Positions 3,215 to 35,102 of a stretch of DNA of 50,597 nt are shown here, piece by piece. A model generated the notes under the pieces. It did not search any database. It worked only from the letters and a program-made list of their open reading frames with translations, and was not told the origin of the DNA. Source of the DNA: Shigella phage S2_02; sequence record OQ223306. The stretch is one strand, 5' to 3'. Position 1 is the stretch's first letter. Every line of letters begins with the position of its first letter. A program made the translations under genes and the position numbers.

Positions 3215-3700
3215 ATGTTGAAATTAAACGAGATTAAATTCCCTGTAGTTTTTAACACTATTAGCTGCGGAAAAATAACCTGCCATAGCAAAGATCGCGC
3301 AACTGACTCATCACTTAATGAGTGTCACCCGTCTATTATTTGCAACTTGATTGATTTACACAATAAGCATAATCCTGACAATATCTCATCACTCCCTTAT
3401 TACGTTGAGTATTTTGGTTCTGGCTGGAAAACTGGTCGAGCCATCTTTCATAGCGCAAAGCCAGAAATCAAGCCAATGCTACAGTGTACTCAGATCGAGA
3501 ACATGCCATTGAGCGCCACGATAAAAGGCGTTCAGATTAGCGATGAATCATGGATCGAGATTACCGCCACGCCTAAAACTATTGAGGTACATGATGATGT
3601 GGTGATTCTCCTGTTGCATTACGGCAGCTTTAAGCACAAGACTGTATCAGGAGAAATCAGCATTAAGCGCGGAACGCTTGTACGCTACGAGGTGAAATAA
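3215..3700 (+). CDS. hypothetical protein (161 aa)
   Basis: ORF track; SD AAGAGGAAA. Confidence 0.6.
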   Translation: MLKLNEIKFPVVFNTISCGKITCHSKDRATDSSLNECHPSIICNLIDLHNKHNPDNISSLPYYVEYFGSGWKTGRAIFHSAKPEIKPMLQCTQIENMPLSATIKGVQISDESWIEITATPKTIEVHDDVVILLLHYGSFKHKTVSGEISIKRGTLVRYEVK

Positions 3701-3762
3701 TGAGCAACTGGTATAACGAACATGTAATGCAGTTTTACCGCAATCGCATCAAGAAAGTTTTA

Positions 3763-3807
3763 AATAGCACGAATTGCTAAACCTTCCGCAAGGCCATTTG
3801 ATATAGT
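3763..3807 (+). promoter_or_regulatory. Early promoter module: box AATAGCACGAATTGCTAAACC + 18 bp + TATAGT
   Basis: TATAGT 3802-3807 in hairpin AAGGCCA/TGGCCTT; predicted start about 3814 supports ATG 3848 as gene start. Confidence 0.5.
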
Positions 3808-3847
3808 GGCCTTATTGAAGCATGGCAACCAATCAGAGGAATCAGCT

Positions 3848-4147
3848 ATGAAAATCAGATTAACCAGCAACTACTTTAACCGTGAATCTTTCAAACAATA
3901 CATAATCACAGACGGAATGAATCCTGGCATCATCCTTGATGTGTCCTACAACATTGGCGACGTTATGTTTGTATCAGCAACTGAGCTTGCAAAGTACGCA
4001 AAGCCAGAACATTGTCACCTGGCAGAGCCTCACTTGATCGATGGAAAGGTTACAGATTACGCATTCACCAAAGGTGAGTATGAAATCGTGAGATCTGGAC
4101 CTTTCAGCTTCTGGAACAAACTTAAATCAGGGGAGTTATTCAAATGA
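3848..4147 (+). CDS. hypothetical protein (99 aa)
   Basis: ORF-track frame (track start is GTG 3806); ATG 3848 has SD CAGAGGA and lies downstream of predicted start of module 3763-3807. Confidence 0.55.
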   Translation: MKIRLTSNYFNRESFKQYIITDGMNPGIILDVSYNIGDVMFVSATELAKYAKPEHCHLAEPHLIDGKVTDYAFTKGEYEIVRSGPFSFWNKLKSGELFK

Positions 4148-4431
4148 GCAAAACTCATAAGTTAAAAATTGCCCCGATACATTTCATTGGTGTAATGAAC
4201 GGAGCCAAAACGGCAGAGTTCCGCATCAATGACCGCAACTTCCAGGTTGGTGATATCCTTGAGCTACGCGAGTTCGATCGTGACGAGTTTACCGGGTGGG
4301 AAGTTCACGCCAGGGTGTCCGATGTTACAGACGTGACGCCATACATCAATCGCGGTTATGACGAGCAAGAATGCGACTTCACGCAATACGTGATGTTATC
4401 AATCAAGCCTTACAGGAAGGTTAGACCATGA
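4144..4431 (+). CDS. putative ASCH/PUA-like (DUF3850-like) domain protein (95 aa)
   Basis: ORF track; N-terminal pattern KLKIAPIHF...GAKTAEFRINDRNFQVGDILELRE recalls ASCH-type small phage proteins (from memory, unverified). Confidence 0.4.
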   Translation: MSKTHKLKIAPIHFIGVMNGAKTAEFRINDRNFQVGDILELREFDRDEFTGWEVHARVSDVTDVTPYINRGYDEQECDFTQYVMLSIKPYRKVRP

Positions 4432-5066
4432 AATTTGAGTGCGTATCAAGTAGCGGATCTGGTTTTAAGTGGGGAAAAACTTACAAAGGTGTTCGCGTAA
4501 ATGATGACAGCTTCATCATTACTGATGAGAACGATTGCAACGTGAACGTTGTACGGCGTCACGAATATCAGGAAATTTTCCTGCCTTATGGCGGTAGCTC
4601 AAAATATATCTTCCATCGAATCGTGGATGGTGTTAAATTTAAAGACGTAATCGAAGCAATCAACCAACTGCATAATAAAGAGGTCAAATTTATGAAATTC
4701 GAATGTATCAGTGATAACACCAAAAAATTTACCGTTGGCAAAATCTACGACGTGCCTACTGAGCACGCAAAGCACACTGTAGCACTGACCGACGACACGG
4801 GTCGCCACCGCATTGCAACCGTAACGCACAACTGTGAAGGTCTTCGCTGGAATAGCGGCGGAACTAAGTTCGCAACGTTCGGCAAGAAGCGCAAGCGTAC
4901 TTTCTGCGTTAATGGAAAGGTTACAGCGAACAAGATCCACAACGTCAAGCCGTCAGAAGTTGACCGTAAGCCAGCGACGAAGTTTGAAGAAAAGGCAGAT
5001 TTGTCTGGTCTGGCTATCGCTCTTGTTCTCCTGGTTGCTTCGATTTCGCTGCTATTCATCATGTAA
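4428..5066 (+). CDS. membrane-anchored protein with internally duplicated N-terminal domain (212 aa)
   Basis: ORF track; two segments each starting MKFEC(V/I)S; C-terminal hydrophobic helix LSGLAIALVLLVASISLLFIM. Confidence 0.6.
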   Translation: MKFECVSSSGSGFKWGKTYKGVRVNDDSFIITDENDCNVNVVRRHEYQEIFLPYGGSSKYIFHRIVDGVKFKDVIEAINQLHNKEVKFMKFECISDNTKKFTVGKIYDVPTEHAKHTVALTDDTGRHRIATVTHNCEGLRWNSGGTKFATFGKKRKRTFCVNGKVTANKIHNVKPSEVDRKPATKFEEKADLSGLAIALVLLVASISLLFIM

Positions 5067-25847: not shown

Positions 25848-28800
25848 ATGATTCAAAAAGTGATAAGCGGATCTAAAGGTGGGTCACAGAAGCCTCATAA
25901 CCCAGTTGAGATGGAAGACAATCTAATCTCAATCAACAAAATCAAGATCCTGTTAGCTGTGTCTGATGGTGAAATTGACGAAACATTCAGCCTAAAGCAG
26001 TTGATGTTTAACTCAGTTCCGGTGCAAAACGAGGATGGATCGTTCAACTTCGAAGGGGTAAAGGCTGAGTTCAGACCGGGAACTCAGACGCAGGAATACA
26101 TCAAGGGCATGGAAGATAGCTCCAGTGAGGTAACTGTAAATCGTGAGGTTACTACCGATAACCCATACACGATCTCAGTAACCAACAAAACGCTGTCGGC
26201 AATCCGTATCAAAATGTTCATGCCTCGCGGCGTACGAATTGAAAGTAACGGAGATAAAAACGGCGTTCGCGTTGAGTACGAAGTGCAACAAGCGGTTGAT
26301 GGCGGTTCGTTTGAGACTGTTCTTACTGACGTAATCGAAGGCAAAACAATGTCAGGTTATGATCGAAGCCGTCGCGTAAACCTTCCTAACTTCAACAATC
26401 AGGTAATATTCAGAGTTGTTCGAAAGACTCCTGACTCCAGTGATTCGAATGTCGTTGATGCAATTCAGGTGAAAAGCTATGCCGAGGTGATTGATGCCAA
26501 ATTCCGTTATCCTCTGACTGGTCTTCTTTTCGTGGAGTTCGATTCGAAGATGTTCCCCAACCAGTTACCTACGATTTCAATTCGTAAGCGCTGGAAGATT
26601 GTAAACGTTCCGTCGAACTACGATCCAGAATCGCGAACATACAACGGCAATTGGGATGGCACTTTCAAAAAAGCATGGACGAATAATCCGGCGTGGGTTC
26701 TTTATGACCTGATGATTAATCAGCGTTACGGCTTGGATCAGAAAGAGCTTGGTATCGCTGTCGATAAATGGGCGCTCTACGAGGCTGCGCAATATTGCGA
26801 TCAGATGGTTCCTGATGGGAAGGGCGGGACGGAACCTCGATACCTTTGCGATGTGATAATCCAGTCTCAAACTGACGCTTACAAGGTTATTCGAGATATT
26901 TGCTCAATCTTTCGAGGTATGAGCTTTTGGAATGGCGAAAGCATTTCGGTAATCATCGACAGGCCGCGTGAGCCTGCGTACATCTTCACTAACGACAACG
27001 TGGTTAATGGTGACTTCTCCTACACGTTTGCAAGCGAAAAGAGCATGTACACGACGTGTAATGTGATGTTTGACGACGAGCAAAACATGTATCAGCAGGA
27101 CGTTGAGCCAGTATTCGATCGTGAGGCTACTCTACGGTTCGGGAACAACGTAACGAGCATTACAGCGATCGGCTGCACACGTCGAAGTGAGGCCAACCGA
27201 CGCGGGAGATGGATTCTGAAAACTAACCTCCGCAGCACTACGGTAAACTTCGCTACCGGGCTTGAAGGTATGATCCCGACAATCGGAGATGTTGTGGCAA
27301 TAGCTGATAACTTCTGGTCAAGCAACTTGACTATGAACCTGTCAGGGCGCTTGCTTGAAGTGTCTGGAAGCCAGATTTTCTTACCGTTCCGAGTGGATGC
27401 GCGCGCAGGTGACTTTATTATCGTAAATAAGCCCGATGGCAAGCCCGTGAAGCGCACAATCTCAAGTGTTAGTGCGGATGGTAAGACTATAGAGATTAAC
27501 ATCGGCTTTGGCTTTCCTGTGAAGCCTAACACGGTATTCGCTATCGACCGCACCGACATTGCGTTACAACAGTACGTCGTGACAAAAATCGACAAGGGAG
27601 ATGATGATGATGAATTTACCTACAAAATCACGGCGGTGGAGTACGATCCTAACAAGTACGATGAGATTGATTACGGAGTTAACATCGACGACAGGCCGAC
27701 GAGCATCGTTGAACCAGATCAGATCCCTAGACCGGAAAACGTGCAAGTGTCCTCAGAGTCACGAATCGTCCAGGGTATGAGCGTAGAAACGATGATCGTT
27801 AGCTGGGATAAAGTGCCGTACGCAGTTTTCTATGATGTCCAGTGGCGAAAGGATAACGGCAACTGGCAAAATGTACCGCAGACGGCAAATAAAGAGGTAT
27901 ACGTTGAAGGTATTTACGCTGGCAACTATCAGGTTCGTGTTCGCTCCGTCGCTGGTTCCGGTACGACTTCAGGATGGTCAAATATCGTAGCTGCGACGCT
28001 GACGGGTAAACAAGGTGAGCCGGGTCGACCGATTAACCTTGCAGCTACGGATGATGTTGTTTTTGGTATCCGTACAAAATGGGGGTTCTCTGATGGTTCT
28101 GGAGATACAGCCTATACGGAGTTGCAACAGTCACCGGATGGAACAGTGGATAACGCAAGTTTGCTTTCTTTGATTCCGTATCCGCAGCATGAGTATTATC
28201 ACTCACCGATGCCTGGAGGGAATATTGTGTGGTATAGGGTAAGGACGGTTGACAGGATCGGTAACGTATCTCAGTGGACTGATTTTGTCAGAGGCATGGC
28301 ATCAACAAACGTTGACGATATCATCGGAGAGATTTCTGTCGATATCGAAAACTCGCCGGGTTACGAGTGGCTTGTTGATAACGCAACCGACAACGCGGCG
28401 CAGAACTCAGCGAACGCAGAGGCAGCAATTGAGAACGCTCTAGCTAATGACAAAGACGCGATCTACATGAAGAAGGAGAACGGAAAACGAAAAGCAGAGT
28501 ACACCAAATCACTGCAACTTATTGCTGATGAGACTCAGGCGAGAGTAACAGCAGTTGAGCAGTTAAGGGCAAGTTTTGGTGATCAGATTAGTGCAAGCAA
28601 TAGCGAATTGCGTGAGGTTATCGCAACCGAGACTGGAGCACTATCGCGTGAGATTGACCAGCTTAAGGCTCAGATTGGTGACGACATTCAGGCAAGTCTG
28701 ACTGATATTCGGGAGGCTATCGCGAACGAGACTGAGGCGAGAACGCAAGCTGACTTGTCGTTAAGCGCGAGGCTTGGAGATAACGAGGCAGCGCTTGCTC

Positions 28801-29297
28801 AAAAATTAGACTCCTGGAGTAATGCTAGTTCGACCGGGGCAATGTACGGCGTCAAGCTGGGTCTGAAATATAACGGTCAGGAATACAGTGCAGGCATGGC
28901 TATGTCTCTGATTGGTTCCGGCGCAGCGGTTAAGGCGCAAATTCTATTCGAAGCGTCACGATTTGCAATCATGACAGGGATGAAAGGCCAGACTCAGTAT
29001 CCTTTCGTGGTTGAGAATGGTCAAGTTATCCTGAGTAGCGCGATCATTAAGGATGGCTTTATTACTAATGCCATGATTGGAAACTGGATTCAATCTAACA
29101 ATTGGGATGGGAATAATGGATGGGCCATAAACAAGAATGGCGACGCTTCATTCATGAATGCAACAGTGAGGGGTAGAATTTACGCAAATAACGGAGAGTT
29201 TGCATTTAACGGAACAAATAACACGGTTCAGATAAACAATAACGGTATCACGGTCAACCTACCTAACGGGGGCCGAGTGGTTGTTGGTGTCTGGTAA
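25848..29297 (+). CDS. central tail fibre / host specificity protein (lambda J-like) (1149 aa)
   Basis: ORF track; size and position at end of tail module. Confidence 0.85.
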   Translation: MIQKVISGSKGGSQKPHNPVEMEDNLISINKIKILLAVSDGEIDETFSLKQLMFNSVPVQNEDGSFNFEGVKAEFRPGTQTQEYIKGMEDSSSEVTVNREVTTDNPYTISVTNKTLSAIRIKMFMPRGVRIESNGDKNGVRVEYEVQQAVDGGSFETVLTDVIEGKTMSGYDRSRRVNLPNFNNQVIFRVVRKTPDSSDSNVVDAIQVKSYAEVIDAKFRYPLTGLLFVEFDSKMFPNQLPTISIRKRWKIVNVPSNYDPESRTYNGNWDGTFKKAWTNNPAWVLYDLMINQRYGLDQKELGIAVDKWALYEAAQYCDQMVPDGKGGTEPRYLCDVIIQSQTDAYKVIRDICSIFRGMSFWNGESISVIIDRPREPAYIFTNDNVVNGDFSYTFASEKSMYTTCNVMFDDEQNMYQQDVEPVFDREATLRFGNNVTSITAIGCTRRSEANRRGRWILKTNLRSTTVNFATGLEGMIPTIGDVVAIADNFWSSNLTMNLSGRLLEVSGSQIFLPFRVDARAGDFIIVNKPDGKPVKRTISSVSADGKTIEINIGFGFPVKPNTVFAIDRTDIALQQYVVTKIDKGDDDDEFTYKITAVEYDPNKYDEIDYGVNIDDRPTSIVEPDQIPRPENVQVSSESRIVQGMSVETMIVSWDKVPYAVFYDVQWRKDNGNWQNVPQTANKEVYVEGIYAGNYQVRVRSVAGSGTTSGWSNIVAATLTGKQGEPGRPINLAATDDVVFGIRTKWGFSDGSGDTAYTELQQSPDGTVDNASLLSLIPYPQHEYYHSPMPGGNIVWYRVRTVDRIGNVSQWTDFVRGMASTNVDDIIGEISVDIENSPGYEWLVDNATDNAAQNSANAEAAIENALANDKDAIYMKKENGKRKAEYTKSLQLIADETQARVTAVEQLRASFGDQISASNSELREVIATETGALSREIDQLKAQIGDDIQASLTDIREAIANETEARTQADLSLSARLGDNEAALAQKLDSWSNASSTGAMYGVKLGLKYNGQEYSAGMAMSLIGSGAAVKAQILFEASRFAIMTGMKGQTQYPFVVENGQVILSSAIIKDGFITNAMIGNWIQSNNWDGNNGWAINKNGDASFMNATVRGRIYANNGEFAFNGTNNTVQINNNGITVNLPNGGRVVVGVW

Positions 29298-29300
29298 CAG

Positions 29301-29330
29301 AAAGGGGCCGATTGGCCCCCTTTTTTTTAA
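29301..29330. terminator. Bidirectional Rho-independent terminator
   Basis: GGGGCC-gatt-GGCCCC flanked by A3 upstream and T8 downstream; sits between convergent genes. Confidence 0.7.
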
Positions 29331-30292
29331 TACATGTTCGGAGTGAAAGGAATTGGCATTGAAATGTTTATATTGAAGGGGAATCGCGCTCCGCTTTGGG
29401 TGGAATAATTACCTACTCTTGTTCCTGGGGCGCTTCTAACGTTACCGCCGCTCATGCAAACGCCCTTGTATCGAATGTTATTATATCCACCTGTAACTCT
29501 GCATATCGTACCTGTTCTCAGTATTGGGAAAAATCCACCGCACCACTGCCAACCATCATTTATCGCCATAGTCCCGCCAAGAACGAAGGGGCGTCTAACG
29601 CTTGAGAAAACGATCTGGCCAGCAGGGTTACTCATAGTTATTCCCGGCCCAGGAGGTGGTGGGGTGTTATTAAATATTACGAGTTGAACGTATACGCTCG
29701 CGCCAACGTCATCAATCCCGTTATAGTTTGCATCCCTGCACCATATTGTATTGCCGTCAGATTCAAGTGTTACGTTTGGATTATCCCACATACCGAAAGG
29801 AACGCCCTGTACTGGCAACTGAGCCTGACCGTTAACCTGAATCCCCCCAACAAATGCAGCGCTCATCAATCTGGCGTTATTCGGTATCGCTGCGAAGTTC
29901 GTTGAATCGTTAACAAGTACCCCCTGATTTCCAGCTTGAGCGGGGAGGATTTCGTAGCAGTTTCCATAAAATCTCATCCTCCTTCCACCGTGCCCGTTAA
30001 AATTACCTACCGTTATTCGTCCGGTTGAATCATTGACCTTCTGAAAACTAGTCAAATAATACACCTCCGGGATGTAATCCATATCGTCTATGTAGATAGC
30101 CTGAGATGGAAGGCAAAAAGCGGTAGATCCTGGACTCATTTGCAGACCAAAATCAAAAACCGATCCAGATGAATCAACTCCGTCAGCCTGTATAGGTCCA
30201 CACCATGACGGGGCGCGAAGCCCTGAAGTTATCTCCATTGCCGGGCGACCGTCGTTTAGGTTTATATATATTCCTTGCCCCATAATTACCAC
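29327..30292 (-). CDS. hypothetical protein co-transcribed with cor-like gene; possible receptor-recognition / tail-fibre-associated protein (321 aa)
   Basis: ORF track; Gly/Asn/Ser-rich with PPPPGPG linker; start overlaps stop of cor-like gene; product assignment speculative. Confidence 0.45.
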   Translation of the reverse strand: MVIMGQGIYINLNDGRPAMEITSGLRAPSWCGPIQADGVDSSGSVFDFGLQMSPGSTAFCLPSQAIYIDDMDYIPEVYYLTSFQKVNDSTGRITVGNFNGHGGRRMRFYGNCYEILPAQAGNQGVLVNDSTNFAAIPNNARLMSAAFVGGIQVNGQAQLPVQGVPFGMWDNPNVTLESDGNTIWCRDANYNGIDDVGASVYVQLVIFNNTPPPPGPGITMSNPAGQIVFSSVRRPFVLGGTMAINDGWQWCGGFFPILRTGTICRVTGGYNNIRYKGVCMSGGNVRSAPGTRVGNYSTQSGARFPFNINISMPIPFTPNMY

Positions 30293-30516
30293 TCTTTAGT
30301 TTTGATTGACACTTTGCCGCTAAAGTTGCCCTGATCGTCGTCGGATGACAGACCTTTGAATCGCATATCAATTTCGCCAGCAGGAACCTTTTGACCATCA
30401 ACGAATCGCATCATGCAAGAACCGTATGCGTAAGTAACGCAGTCGCCATTTTTAAGATTCTGAGCACAACCAGTCAGGATGAATGCCGCAGCAATAATGG
30501 TGATTAACTTTTTCAT
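30286..30516 (-). CDS. cor: Cor-like outer-membrane lipoprotein (superinfection exclusion candidate) (76 aa)
   Basis: ORF track; signal peptide with lipobox LTGC; size and position next to tail-fibre genes as in T1/phi80-type phages (from memory). Confidence 0.55.
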   Translation of the reverse strand: MKKLITIIAAAFILTGCAQNLKNGDCVTYAYGSCMMRFVDGQKVPAGEIDMRFKGLSSDDDQGNFSGKVSIKTKEW

Positions 30517-30545
30517 TCGTGTGTCCTCGTCGTTAGTGTGATTGC

Positions 30546-30574
30546 ATTGTATGTCGCATTTACTTTTATTGCAA
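30546..30574 (-). promoter_or_regulatory. Putative sigma70 promoter for cor operon (TTGCAA-17-TACAAT on minus strand)
   Basis: Minus-strand -35 at 30569-30574 and -10 at 30546-30551, 17-bp spacer; SD GAGGA before cor ATG. Confidence 0.5.
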
Positions 30575-30595
30575 TAGCACGATTACAATTTTTTA

Positions 30596-30950
30596 GTGTA
30601 ACAGGTGTCTATTTTTGTAACCGGAACGGGTGTTACAAAATCCACCACATCCGATCGCAGAGGGATATGATAAAAACTCTATATAATATATATAGATAGA
30701 TAATATTTAATTTTAGCTTTATATATATAATTATTGCTGTGTAACAGTTGTCTATCGTGTAACAGGTGATTTTATTGATTCGTCAAATTTCTATCATATA
30801 TGTTCAAAATTTAATCAATATTGATTCTATTCATGGATATCTGTGTATTTCTAAGAAAATGCTGTTACAAGTATTACACAATAGACACCACATAAAAACA
30901 GCTCTAAGCTATTGATTACGTTGACACTGGTTGTAACTTGAGCGATATAG
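30596..30950. repeat. Array of GTGTAACAG / GTGTCTAT motifs (direct and inverted) with AT-rich tracts in divergent control region
   Basis: Copies read at about 30596-30613, 30616-30637 (palindrome TGTAACC...GTGTTACA), 30736-30768, 30861-30889 (inverted), 30930-30950. Confidence 0.6.
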
Positions 30951-30983
30951 ACACGCAATTACACACCAATTACATGTATTCGA

Positions 30984-31011
30984 TTGACTAAACTCTGTTA
31001 ATGGCTATAAT
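30984..31011 (+). promoter_or_regulatory. Putative strong sigma70 promoter for exonuclease operon (TTGACT-16-TATAAT)
   Basis: TTGACT 30984-30989, TATAAT 31006-31011; about 30 nt upstream of ATG 31043. Confidence 0.6.
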
Positions 31012-31042
31012 GGATTCATCGTAAACGAGGGAGATAAACGAA

Positions 31043-33317: not shown

Positions 33318-35102
33318 TCATTTGGACTTCAACATTTTTATCTCTTCTTGTAACTCTTCAACTTTCTTTATTGTATCCTGCAAAGCTCTCATAGTGTCAA
33401 GCAATAAAGGAGTTGTATCAAGCTCAAGCCTTTCAACTTTTGGCCCGTTTAGCTCGTGGCTCTCATACATCCTTCTCTTAACATATAGATTGTCGATCTC
33501 TTCTATCTCCTGAGCTATAACACCTCGCCTTACCCTTTCTTGCTCATCATCGTTAAATATAAAGTTCCTAAATCTCATTGATTTTATATTGTTGTATGCA
33601 ATGCTTGATTCATCATCCTTTATGCTGTGCTTTATATTTCTGTCAGATGCCGGAACTTGTTGGAAACTTCCAGTCTCTTGTGGTCCAGCGTAAGATATTT
33701 GCCCTGAAGCCATAAACCTGAAATGCATTTGCAGACCAATATTGCCTGCTCCATCCCTATCTTGAGTGCCTACTGATATTTGTGCTCTGGGCCATTCAGC
33801 ATTACCCGTAGTCATCATGCCAAATGCTACGCCGCCAACATACCCTTGCCCCCTTGTATCACACGATCCAGCAACAAGTGATTGATAGTTTTCAGCGCCA
33901 CTATCGGCGGTGTAAGAATTACCCTGGAAGCATGAAGCAGACCACATCTGGTTGTAACCCATAGATGTTTTCTGGCATAAAAACTGATTGGCTCTAAATC
34001 TATTGTTAGTCTCGAAGTAGTTTGCCCCTTCAGAAAATAATAAAGTCCCAGCATAACCATTATCGCTACGTTCTTTTCTGACGTAAATACCTGGCGTAGA
34101 CATTCCATCAGGTGACATAATCATCAATGATGACAATATGGACTTACTACCCCAGCTAGAACCGTCCCATGAATTCCTTCCTGCACCTATAGCGCCAGTG
34201 GTGTTAATAGTAAGAAAGTTAACAGCATCATTTTCACCTAACCCAATATTTTTTCTTGACTCTTTTTTATCCTCAAGACCAGCTAGATTGCCATCCTTAG
34301 TTAAAAGATTTTCAGCATTGATGCTGTTAGCTGCGTCTTTTGCTTCTTGAGCACTTACCGCAGCCGCATCTTTTGAGCTTACCGCATCGTCACGCGCTGC
34401 CTGAGCGTCGTTTTTTGCAGAGGTCGCTGTTTGTGCCGCTGTTTGAGCGTCATTAACGTAACCTGACAGATCGCCTTTTGCGTCATTAATTGCCTGAATC
34501 GCCGCCGCTTCTTCTGAGTCAATGTGAGTGATGGATGAATTTTCTTTTTGCTGCACATCGGTTATAGCCTGATCCTTCGCCGCATTGATGCTACCGACAG
34601 CACCGTCAACAATCTGTTGCGTCTGATTCTTGATTGAGTTAGTTTCATCGCGTGCAGCGTTGGCTGCGTCACGCGCTAATTCAGCCTGATTTTGCGCAGC
34701 TTGAGAATCAGATTTCGCCTGATTCACATCAGCAACTATTTGCTCAAGTTTATTCATATCAAGCTGATTTATCAGATCTATAGCTGCCGCGATCTCAGTC
34801 TCTTTGCTTTGATAGTATCGAAGCGTCTCAGCAACGTTTTGAGCTAATCCGTTAACAGTCAACGAATCGTTAAGCAGGATCACATACTTACCGTCAGCGG
34901 CAGTCTGACCATCCGTAGAGATAGCCTTTAACTCTGTGTCGCTAACGATATCGCTAATCACCGCCAGCTTAATTGGTTGCTCCAGGAATACGATAGTTGC
35001 ACCGACTCGAATCAGAGCAAGTTGATCTTTCCATTTTGTATCGGTTCCGTGAACCGTGCCGTCTGCATCCATTGATGCAGTGCCGCGTCTATATAAAGCC
35101 AT
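33318..35102 (-). CDS. tail fibre protein with C-terminal intramolecular-chaperone (peptidase S74-like) domain (594 aa)
   Basis: ORF track; Ala/Gln/Asp-rich repeats in N-terminal half; C-terminal segment ...SDRNIKHSIKDDESSIAYNNIKSMRFRNFIF... followed by coiled-coil tail, as in auto-cleaving fibre chaperone domains. Confidence 0.7.
   Translation of the reverse strand: MALYRRGTASMDADGTVHGTDTKWKDQLALIRVGATIVFLEQPIKLAVISDIVSDTELKAISTDGQTAADGKYVILLNDSLTVNGLAQNVAETLRYYQSKETEIAAAIDLINQLDMNKLEQIVADVNQAKSDSQAAQNQAELARDAANAARDETNSIKNQTQQIVDGAVGSINAAKDQAITDVQQKENSSITHIDSEEAAAIQAINDAKGDLSGYVNDAQTAAQTATSAKNDAQAARDDAVSSKDAAAVSAQEAKDAANSINAENLLTKDGNLAGLEDKKESRKNIGLGENDAVNFLTINTTGAIGAGRNSWDGSSWGSKSILSSLMIMSPDGMSTPGIYVRKERSDNGYAGTLLFSEGANYFETNNRFRANQFLCQKTSMGYNQMWSASCFQGNSYTADSGAENYQSLVAGSCDTRGQGYVGGVAFGMMTTGNAEWPRAQISVGTQDRDGAGNIGLQMHFRFMASGQISYAGPQETGSFQQVPASDRNIKHSIKDDESSIAYNNIKSMRFRNFIFNDDEQERVRRGVIAQEIEEIDNLYVKRRMYESHELNGPKVERLELDTTPLLLDTMRALQDTIKKVEELQEEIKMLKSK

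Follow-up and report, generated by a model that had tools for sequence, protein, structure and literature searches.

Receptor-binding and exclusion modules beside J

The pairing of a receptor-binding protein (RBP) with an exclusion lipoprotein is already known, and structures of the family were solved in 2025. In the phages Rtp (Rtp44/Rtp45) and Oekolampad (bas18_0025/0026), it constitutes the LptD-type 'bona fide RBP locus' (PDB: 9RPT, 9RPW, 9RQI, 9RPS), and the literature source for the gene pair as RBP plus receptor-blocking lipoprotein is Maffei et al. Dunbar et al. 2025 determined cryo-EM structures of LptDE with the Oekolampad RBP and with Rtp45, which reveal the mechanisms of binding and exclusion (PMC12685063). 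In vitro, the Oekolampad RBP docks on LptDE from the extracellular side, and this binding is lost through point mutations that confer phage resistance (PMC12685063). Oekolampad, AugustePiccard, JeanPiccard and others are no longer infective on lptD mutants (PMC8594841), and OzMSK fails on lptD mutants that stop Oekolampad and others (PMC13035648). SH6 has been published as a predicted LptD phage, with its gp49 modelled as a predicted LptD-binding RBP.

Further systems share parts of this arrangement. Phage T5 carries its RBP (pb5) as a separate monomer on the central-fibre tip and pairs it with a small periplasm-facing lipoprotein (Llp) that prevents RBP binding; Llp works on FhuA through long-range allostery, while Rtp45 displaces LptD loop 4 physically (PMC12685063). 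Cor, found in T1, phi80, N15 and HK022, is a lipoprotein of the outer membrane; it disables the receptor of its own phage, FhuA, and is encoded in the same slot beside J.

The Shigella phage S2_02 genome is that of a Tunavirus (T1-like phage), with ~97% DNA identity to Shigella phage Sfin-1. Within the window, which comprises the whole analysed stretch of 50,597 nucleotides (record OQ223306), the gene pair at 29327-30516 is best read as a host-recognition cassette of the LptD-targeting type in a T1-like siphophage, consisting of an RBP and a blocking lipoprotein, with LptD as the predicted receptor. We assign this reading a probability of roughly 0.88. The features of the locus are as follows.

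25848..29297, plus strand: J-like central tail fibre or tail tip protein, 1149 aa, proposed RBP-carrying platform (Pfam and phrog_31)
29102..29294, plus strand: final 64 codons of J (residues 1086-1149), exchanged along with the genes downstream (break in DNA homology)
29102..30465, no strand: proposed exchangeable host-range cassette of 1364 bp, comprising J tail, terminator, RBP and mature lipoprotein (comparison with T1 and Sfin-3)
29304..29319, no strand: palindromic GC hairpin GGGGCC-GATT-GGCCCC between the J and RBP stop codons, probable two-way intrinsic terminator
29327..30283, minus strand: receptor-binding protein of the DUF6453 / Rtp44 / RBP-Oekolampad family, 318 aa, predicted binder of the LptD extracellular face
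30286..30516, minus strand: Rtp45-family superinfection-exclusion lipoprotein, 76 aa as precursor and 60 aa mature, predicted binder of LptDE from the periplasm
30466..30516, minus strand: signal peptide and lipobox MKKLITIIAAAFILTGC, 17/17 residues identical to T1 Cor
30574..30546, minus strand: candidate sigma70-type promoter TTGCAA-17-TACAAT (scan, 9/12 matches)
~30611..30582, minus strand: candidate sigma70-type promoter TAGACA-N17-TGTAAT, corresponding to a promoter annotated in SA32RD

Homology, predicted fold, gene order and recombination junctions were established on the S2_02 cassette itself. The order of lipoprotein followed by RBP, convergent on J, is common to S2_02, Oekolampad, Rtp and SH6, and S2_02 also shares with Rtp and Oekolampad both Pfam families and the type of J C-terminal tail. 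The phage backbone differs, being Tunavirus in S2_02 and Rtpvirus and Dhillonvirus in the other two. The first-pass annotation had likened the pair to modules of a receptor-blocking lipoprotein plus RBP and had suspected a host-range locus. Both are supported by the literature and by homology of the two proteins to the solved chains 9rps_D and 9rpt_C.

Essentially the same genes are found in SH6 (gp49/gp50) and as counterparts in Sfin-1, Shfl1, pSf-2, phi2457T and AV106, with 98.7-99.7% identity for the RBP (SH6 98.7%), 98.7-100% for the lipoprotein and no difference of substance. Database records of these genes mostly read 'hypothetical' or 'membrane protein'. Since the gene family is published, with structures and an LptD prediction for a 98.7%-identical protein, the S2_02 locus holds little that is new. 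What it adds is a re-annotation, from 'hypothetical' or 'membrane protein' to RBP and from 'lipoprotein' to exclusion factor, as well as exact cassette boundaries that could guide engineering.

The receptor-binding protein

The larger open reading frame matches PF20051 (DUF6453) with an E-value of 2.7e-126 (421 bits, cut-off 25); the match spans residues 7-298 of the 321-aa frame and covers the profile completely (positions 1-291 of 291). Its alignment with the Oekolampad RBP on LptDE (PDB: 9rpt_C; E 2.7e-66) runs end to end, and global identity amounts to 43% to the Oekolampad RBP and 41% to Rtp44. The nearest relative with a tested receptor is the RBP of OzMSK, at 67.8% identity. The AlphaFold2 model (pLDDT 83.7) is all-beta, and when compared with the PDB by Foldseek, 9rpt_C was the sole significant match (E 5.4e-20, target-normalised TM 0.91, rmsd 2.5 Å), the common fold being a double beta-sandwich. 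Homology and structure prediction, the checks named in the first-pass annotation for this protein, thus lead to the same chain by sequence and by fold.

The protein is indeed rich in Gly (13.2%) and Asn (8.8%), as initially described, and also in Pro (7.5%). A poly-Pro stretch, previously taken for a linker, is present as PPPP at residues 208-211, but it is not a loose linker; it belongs to the conserved family motif FNNTPPxxGxG, in which P209 and G214 are invariant. The length of 321 aa and the 7-nt overlap with the lipoprotein gene had to be abandoned, as the GTG-initiated frame is only the mechanically longest one. Judged from the sequence, translation likely starts with the ATG at 30283, 2 nt beyond the lipoprotein TAA, for a product of 318 aa. 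This ATG is preceded by AAAGAG, its equivalent is used in the annotations of the relatives SH6 and SA32RD, and its Met is the first residue in the alignment with the solved homologue. Short plus-strand frames at 29396-29905, antisense to the RBP gene, lie wholly within this well-supported gene.

Divergence is most prominent in the N-terminal sandwich, where residues 31-120 share 10-20% identity with Oekolampad and column entropy is high. Because of this low identity, the details of receptor contact, and conceivably specificity, could differ from those of the Oekolampad RBP.

The exclusion lipoprotein

The 76-aa lipoprotein with lipobox LTGC was correctly recognized at the outset: the reading frame opens with MKKLITIIAAAFILTGC, a signal peptide is present, and a GAGGA ribosome-binding site lies 8 nt 5' of the start. 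Around the lipidation site the sequence reads MKKLITIIAAAFILTG-C17-A18. Under the +2 rule, Asp serves as the retention signal; Ala differs from Asp, and its presence at +2 permits sorting to the outer membrane.

The protein belongs to PF24052 (8.6e-25, 87 bits, cut-off 27) and phrog_4281 (3e-37), and aligns with Rtp45 (PDB: 9rps_D) at an E-value of 1.1e-9. Residues C26 and C34 align with the disulfide cysteines of Rtp45 (Cys30-Cys38), and the hairpin motif VPAGE(I/V)D(M/V)R(F/Y) is kept between the two proteins. Identity of the mature part reaches 73% with the Oekolampad SE protein and 41% with Rtp45. According to the authors of 9RPS, AlphaFold3 mis-predicts Rtp45 and its complex (PMC12685063). 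PDB sequence searches with the RBP and the lipoprotein returned 9rpt_C and 9rps_D only; chains of pb5 or Llp were absent from the matches up to E 0.01 for the RBP query and up to 1 for the lipoprotein query.

The earlier designation as Cor-like holds for function but not for the mature part, which is unrelated to Cor. The match to phrog_1119 (Cor) is confined to residues 1-33, the mature protein gives no real alignment with T1 Cor (4 identities in 12 aligned residues, score 21), and T1 Cor scores 17.7 bits against PF24052, below the cut-off of 27. Membership in the Cor family was therefore rejected, the likeness being limited to the signal peptide. The signal peptide is that of T1 Cor because recombination joined the two sequences precisely at the lipobox Cys codon, which also accounts for the '45% identity to T1 cor' of SH6 gp50 (PMC5238451). 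The promoter region is likewise identical between T1 cor and S2_02.

Receptor assignment

LptDE binding, the exclusion mechanism and LptD-dependent infection are established for homologues, the exclusion mechanism solely through the Rtp45-LptDE structure. By analogy with these, and judging from sequence, the receptor for irreversible adsorption of S2_02 is most probably LptD, the outer-membrane LPS exporter. Since the lipoprotein must recognise the same receptor from the periplasm, it supports LptD independently of the more divergent RBP.

We considered whether the module is of the same kind, yet the Tunavirus sub-clade of S2_02 has drifted to an outer-membrane receptor other than LptD. The hypervariable segment 31-120 of the RBP would be compatible with such a drift, and in this sub-clade LptD is a receptor by prediction only. 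However, the verified LptD binders of Oekolampad and Rtp are just 35% identical to each other, less than the 41-43% that the S2_02 RBP shares with either, and the RBP of LptD-dependent OzMSK is closer still. Moreover, the mature lipoprotein resembles that of an LptD phage at 73% identity and retains the VPAGE-D-R hairpin motif as well as the Cys pair of Rtp45. A change of receptor is thus improbable.

Even less probable is a role of the 318-aa protein outside the virion, as a membrane-associated accessory ('moron') that aids the lipoprotein in excluding other phages. Such a role is suggested by the phrog_1265 label 'membrane protein' (category moron), by the RefSeq naming of homologues as 'membrane protein', and by the presumed co-transcription of the gene with the exclusion gene and not with the tail operon; in addition, a 2026 paper takes gp31 and gp32, the unrelated T1 genes next to cor, to function in exclusion (PMC13164509). 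LC-MS/MS of purified SH6 virions identified 11 proteins, including J and the lateral fibre, and left the RBP homologue gp49 undetected (PMC5238451). This is weak negative evidence against the RBP in the virion, given an incomplete survey and a very low expected copy number; in the literature consulted, we found no positive virion evidence for any member of the DUF6453 family. Against the accessory role stand the all-beta, soluble fold, the lack of any signal peptide or hydrophobic segment in the 318-aa protein (maximum Kyte-Doolittle 19-residue mean 0.99), and the behaviour of the homologue, whose binding to LptDE's extracellular face is abolished by resistance mutations. The label 'membrane protein' or 'moron' for DUF6453 was rejected on account of the absent hydrophobic segment and the soluble beta fold.

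The J tail and the limits of the cassette

The J protein matches the Pfam families FNIII-A_GpJ, Phage-tail_3 and Phage_Tail_Tip as well as phrog_31 ('central tail fiber J'), and is 98-100% identical to T1 J as far as ~residue 1050. The RBP gene is convergent on J, as had been stated; it lies on the same strand as the lipoprotein gene and ends at 29327, facing the J stop at 29297. Towards its C-terminus, J changes in kind: over the last 49 residues (1101-1149), identity falls to 24% with T1 J, against 77% with Rtp43 and 51% with Oekolampad J. A tblastn search with the J tail matched the 3' end of the J gene in 89 phage records, T1 being absent from the matches. In every listed record that was cross-checked against the DUF6453 hit list, a DUF6453 gene lay within ~100 nt of the J-tail match. 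We infer that the C-terminal 64 aa of J are probably the docking adaptor for the DUF6453 RBP in S2_02. That J instead binds the receptor itself, as in lambda, with the 318-aa protein acting as an assembly factor or chaperone of the J tip, is scarcely credible: the Phage_Tail_Tip domain, the naming of J as 'the RBP' of T1-like phages in several papers and the TolC-targeting relatives that carry an extended J instead of a downstream locus speak for it, but outside its last ~64 residues J is 98-100% identical to the J of FhuA-dependent T1, so specificity does not reside in the J body, and the RBP homologue has been solved in direct complexes with LptDE.

The exchange of this J tail extends to the neighbouring genes. 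DNA homology to T1 and to the sibling phage Sfin-3 ends at 29101, inside J, and restarts at 30467/30466, placing the junctions at J codon 1085 and after the lipobox Cys codon. The flanks are 92-94% identical to T1 and Sfin-3, and there is no homology inside. Exactly in this slot, T1 and Sfin-3 carry the FhuA-type set of gp32, gp31 and cor. T1 has its putative RBP genes on the same strand as J and cor by itself on the other, whereas in S2_02 the RBP follows the lipoprotein on the opposite strand; no similarity of the S2_02 cassette proteins to T1 gp31 or gp32 was found.

We favour, by a narrow margin over an even chance, the view that the host-range unit of T1-like phages is a precise three-part cassette, consisting of the last 64 residues of J, the RBP and the mature lipoprotein alone, with fixed 'sockets' and a docking interface. 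The J body would be one socket, the cor promoter plus signal peptide the other. The docking interface would be formed by the J tail together with RBP segments 1-22 and 120-130, which are conserved but poorly modelled. If this is true, swapping 29102-30465 alone could re-programme receptor specificity from FhuA to LptD and back.

Proposed mechanism and significance

We postulate that the 318-aa all-beta RBP is held non-covalently on the J C-terminal tail by its conserved N-terminal base, and that its variable end would enter the extracellular mouth of LptD, the LPS translocon. This engagement would lead to irreversible adsorption and DNA injection. The lipoprotein, in turn, would be exported, lipidated at Cys17 and, with Ala at +2, sorted to the inner leaflet of the outer membrane, where it is predicted to bind LptDE from the periplasmic side and push its hairpin up the LptD lumen. 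Displacement of LptD extracellular loop 4 by the hairpin would block RBP docking, leaving the infected cell safe from superinfection and sparing progeny phage from being wasted on cell debris. Cloned rtp45 reportedly confers resistance to Rtp.

The locus sets the outer-membrane protein used for irreversible adsorption, and with it host range, the routes of bacterial resistance and cross-exclusion between phages. As LptD is essential and conserved, phages that target it are attractive in therapy. They are also nuisance contaminants, to which T1-resistant (fhuA) laboratory strains present no barrier.

Transcription signals

The lipoprotein and RBP genes are probably translationally coupled (TAA-TT-ATG). 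Their leftward transcription would begin in the intergenic region that they share with the recombination genes and stop at the hairpin shared with J. Some leftward promoter is logically required within 30517..31042. The sigma70-like promoter that had been assigned to the pair is present as a site upstream, but it does not rise above chance, as the AT-rich region holds 7 promoter-like sites against 6.2 +/- 3.0 expected; the second candidate, at ~30611..30582, likewise stays within chance. A sigma70-like promoter of the lipoprotein/RBP operon is therefore plausible as a candidate only, and both the operon promoter and the timing of expression in S2_02 are putative.

The bidirectional terminator proposed for the pair and J is probable. 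The hairpin at 29304..29319 is perfect; the scan gave GGGGCCGATTGGCCCC followed by T8 on the plus strand, and the sequence itself shows the tail TTTCTGTT on the minus strand. The homologous hairpin in phage SA32RD carries a terminator annotation on both strands.

Phage identity and the lipoprotein/probable RBP gene pair

Identity to Shigella phage Sfin-1 is 97.3% over the 1.5 kb around the lipoprotein/receptor-binding protein (RBP) pair. Over the same 1.5 kb, identity to phi2457T, ISF002, pSf-2, Shfl1 and SH6 is 92-97%. These phages belong to Tunavirus (T1-like Drexlerviridae), with genomes of ~50 kb. The genes flanking the pair fit a lambda/T1-type tail module.

Features of the locus
Upstream side of the pair: K-like JAB/NlpC protein, lambda I-like protein, 1149-aa tail-tip protein J (25848-29297, + strand)
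29304-29319: hairpin GGGGCC-GATT-GGCCCC between the convergent stop codons of the J and RBP genes
29327-30283, - strand: RBP gene, 318 aa
30286-30516, - strand: lipoprotein gene, 76 aa
30574..30546, leftward: sigma70-like site TTGCAA-17-TACAAT upstream of the lipoprotein
About 30611..30582: second candidate promoter, the one annotated in SA32RD
30596-30612, 30739-30755, 30757-30773: direct copies of a 17-nt motif
30874-30889: inverted partial copy of the motif
Other side of the pair: PDDEXK exonuclease, ERF recombinase, likely SSB, lateral tail fibre
33318-35102, - strand: lateral tail fibre, 594 aa, with a Peptidase_S74 intramolecular chaperone domain (residues 486-536)
Sfin-3 (locus L006) 3690-4933: counterpart of window 29102-30465; two small + strand genes and cor, T1/FhuA-type

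Both open reading frames are present on the minus strand. The 76-aa product begins with MKKLITIIAAAFILTGC, a signal peptide and LTGC lipobox with Ala at +2, and is preceded by a GAGGA ribosome-binding site, in agreement with the lipoprotein described in the first-pass annotation. The second protein had been read as 321 aa with a 7-nt overlap; this start (GTG 30292) merely gives the longest possible frame, and we favour ATG 30283, located 2 nt past the lipoprotein TAA with AAAGAG in front. The ATG yields the 318 aa of the curated records SH6 and SA32RD, and alignment to the solved homologue begins at its Met. The protein is Gly/Asn-rich as described (Gly 13.2%, Asn 8.8%, Pro 7.5%). The proposed poly-Pro linker is present as a PPPP run (residues 208-211), but belongs to a motif found across the family, in which P209 and G214 are invariant.

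The probable RBP and its putative excluder

The RBP is a full-length DUF6453 protein (Pfam PF20051, 2.7e-126). A PDB sequence search returned one entry set only, aligned end to end (9RPT/9RPW/9RQI chain C, E 2.7e-66), and 9rpt_C was the sole significant match of the AF2 model (pLDDT 83.7, pTM 0.82) in a structure search (E 5.4e-20, target-normalised TM 0.91, rmsd 2.5 A). The homology and structure-prediction checks suggested for this protein thus both point to the RBP of phage Oekolampad, solved on LptDE.

PHROG 1265, which the RBP also matches, is labelled 'membrane protein, moron'. We reject this label, as hydropathy peaks at 0.99 (19-residue mean), a search for a signal peptide in the RBP found none, and the model is all-beta. 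DUF6453 proteins are called 'membrane protein' or 'moron' in RefSeq/PHROG and 'hypothetical protein' in most GenBank records, with 'receptor binding protein' used for the OzMSK record only; annotation of the family lags behind the 2025 structures. Family members are frequent in coliphages, in phages of Klebsiella and Salmonella, and in enterobacterial prophages. DUF6453 RBPs (38-68% identical) and coliphage-type J tails also occur in MG065663.1 and related records ('Campylobacter phage A134' and others) and PP134917.1 ('Pseudomonas phage PsgS01F'), which may be coliphage contaminants or carry mislabelled hosts.

The lipoprotein belongs to PF24052 (8.6e-25) and aligns with Rtp45 on LptDE (9RPS chain D, E 1.1e-9), including the internal cysteine pair and the VPAGE-D-R motif. 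The designation as Cor-like stands for function, since the protein works like Cor and Llp, but not for descent. Its signal peptide is identical to that of T1 Cor (17/17); the PHROG Cor profile covers residues 1-33 only, the mature parts do not align, and T1 Cor scores below the PF24052 threshold, so the lipoprotein is not a Cor family member.

Identity to LptD-type relatives
RBP: SH6 gp49, 98.7%; AV106, 99.7%; OzMSK RBP, 67.8%; Oekolampad RBP, 43%; Rtp44, 41%
Lipoprotein: phi2457T cluster, 100%
Mature lipoprotein: Oekolampad exclusion protein, 73%; Rtp45, 41%

In small siphoviruses, the terminal receptor was matched to allelic 'bona fide RBP loci' that lie immediately downstream of gpJ and each include a cognate superinfection-exclusion protein; small lptD deletions block seven phages with one common module, Oekolampad included, and an LptD receptor was predicted for Rtp via rtp44/rtp45 (Maffei et al. 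2021, PMC8594841). OzMSK also fails on these lptD mutants, and RBP models for 'predicted LptD-dependent' phages expressly cover Tunavirus SH6 (Black et al. 2025, PMC13035648). Structurally, the Oekolampad RBP sits deep inside an open state of Shigella flexneri LptDE, and the resistance-conferring single LptD substitutions Y671N and D352Y abolish its binding. Rtp45 binds LptDE from the periplasm, in between LptE and LptM; its Cys30-Cys38 disulfide and a hairpin up the lumen shift extracellular loop 4 by as much as 20 A, which leaves the RBP unable to bind (Dunbar et al. 2025, PMC12685063).

Oekolampad and Rtp share the gene order of the window, lipoprotein then RBP, convergent on J. Homology, fold and synteny thus place the pair among receptor-blocking lipoprotein plus RBP modules, and the first-pass interpretation as the host-range locus is right. 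Most likely, the RBP is an LptD-specific adsorption protein on the J tip and the lipoprotein its excluder, by analogy with homologues for which LptDE binding and exclusion have been shown. Carried on the J tip, the RBP would adsorb to LptD; the lipoprotein, facing the periplasm, would deform LptD and exclude phages with the same RBP type.

We infer LptD as the probable receptor of this Tunavirus sub-clade because the RBP is no more divergent than RBPs verified to use LptD are among themselves (those of Oekolampad and Rtp are only 35% identical), and because the lipoprotein, which has to recognise that receptor from the inner side, is far better conserved than the RBP. Two caveats apply. RBP residues 31-120 are only 10-20% identical to Oekolampad, and LC-MS/MS of SH6 virions listed 11 proteins without the RBP homologue gp49 (PMC5238451), although this survey was incomplete and the expected copy number is very low.

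The system is already known, both from the solved structures and from a prediction published for a protein with 98.7% identity. The exact cassette boundaries, our own addition, and the co-variation of the J tail are useful details rather than a discovery.

Cassette boundaries and the J tail

DNA homology to T1 and Sfin-3 ends on the left at 29101 (J codon 1085) and resumes on the right at 30467/30466, exactly past the lipobox Cys codon, which accounts for the signal-peptide identity to T1 Cor. The swapped unit therefore spans 29102-30465 and comprises the end of J, the terminator, the RBP and the mature part of the lipoprotein. An unrelated mature lipoprotein thus makes use of the existing cor promoter and signal peptide, and the final 64 J residues move together with the RBP. 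Up to about residue 1050, J matches its T1 counterpart at 98-100% identity. Over the final 49 residues (1101-1149), identity is 24% with T1 J, 77% with Rtp43 and 51% with Oekolampad J.

A search with the J tail found 89 phage records, among them the LptD-dependent JeanPiccard and TheodorHerzl; T1 was not among the matches. Among the matches listed, every record that was cross-checked against the DUF6453 match list (Rtp, HK578, the vB_EcoS-12210I group and others) had a DUF6453 gene within ~100 nt of the J end. The T1-type J tail is found in 510 other records, one of them Sfin-3, where gp32, gp31 and cor occupy this slot. Sfin-1, -2, -4, -5, -6 and the window hold the LptD-type set there, and the Sfin siblings, named as one series, probably differ in terminal receptor.

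The RBP probably docks onto the J tail. RBP segments 1-22 and 120-130 are the most conserved, yet have the lowest model confidence, which would fit an interface ordered only upon binding and also the cryo-EM map, where RBP-Oekolampad is poorly ordered in its tail-proximal part (PMC12685063).

The lateral tail fibre, ~3 kb from the cassette, is a second, independently variable host-range determinant; its chaperone domain has been noted in the SH6 fibre too.

Transcription signals

On the + strand the hairpin leads into T8, on the - strand into TTTCTGTT, and SA32RD is annotated with terminators on both strands at the homologous site, in keeping with a probable bidirectional terminator common to the pair and J. 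Because the genes next on the right point the opposite way, 30517-31042 must contain a leftward promoter. The sigma70-like promoter assigned to the pair has a matching site, but sites of this kind are no more frequent than in shuffled sequence (7 found, 6.2 +/- 3.0 expected) and it is unproven; apart from this and the start codon with its overlap, the first-pass observation was essentially right.

The leftward lipoprotein/RBP and rightward recombination operons are separated by 525 bp of AT-rich DNA containing a recurring 17-nt motif, GTGTAACAGGTGTCTAT. Allowing up to 3 mismatches, it has 3 matches there, compared with an expectation of 0.04 for the whole window. One candidate leftward promoter has its -35 element overlapped by the first copy, and a phage regulator of both divergent operons could bind at these copies.
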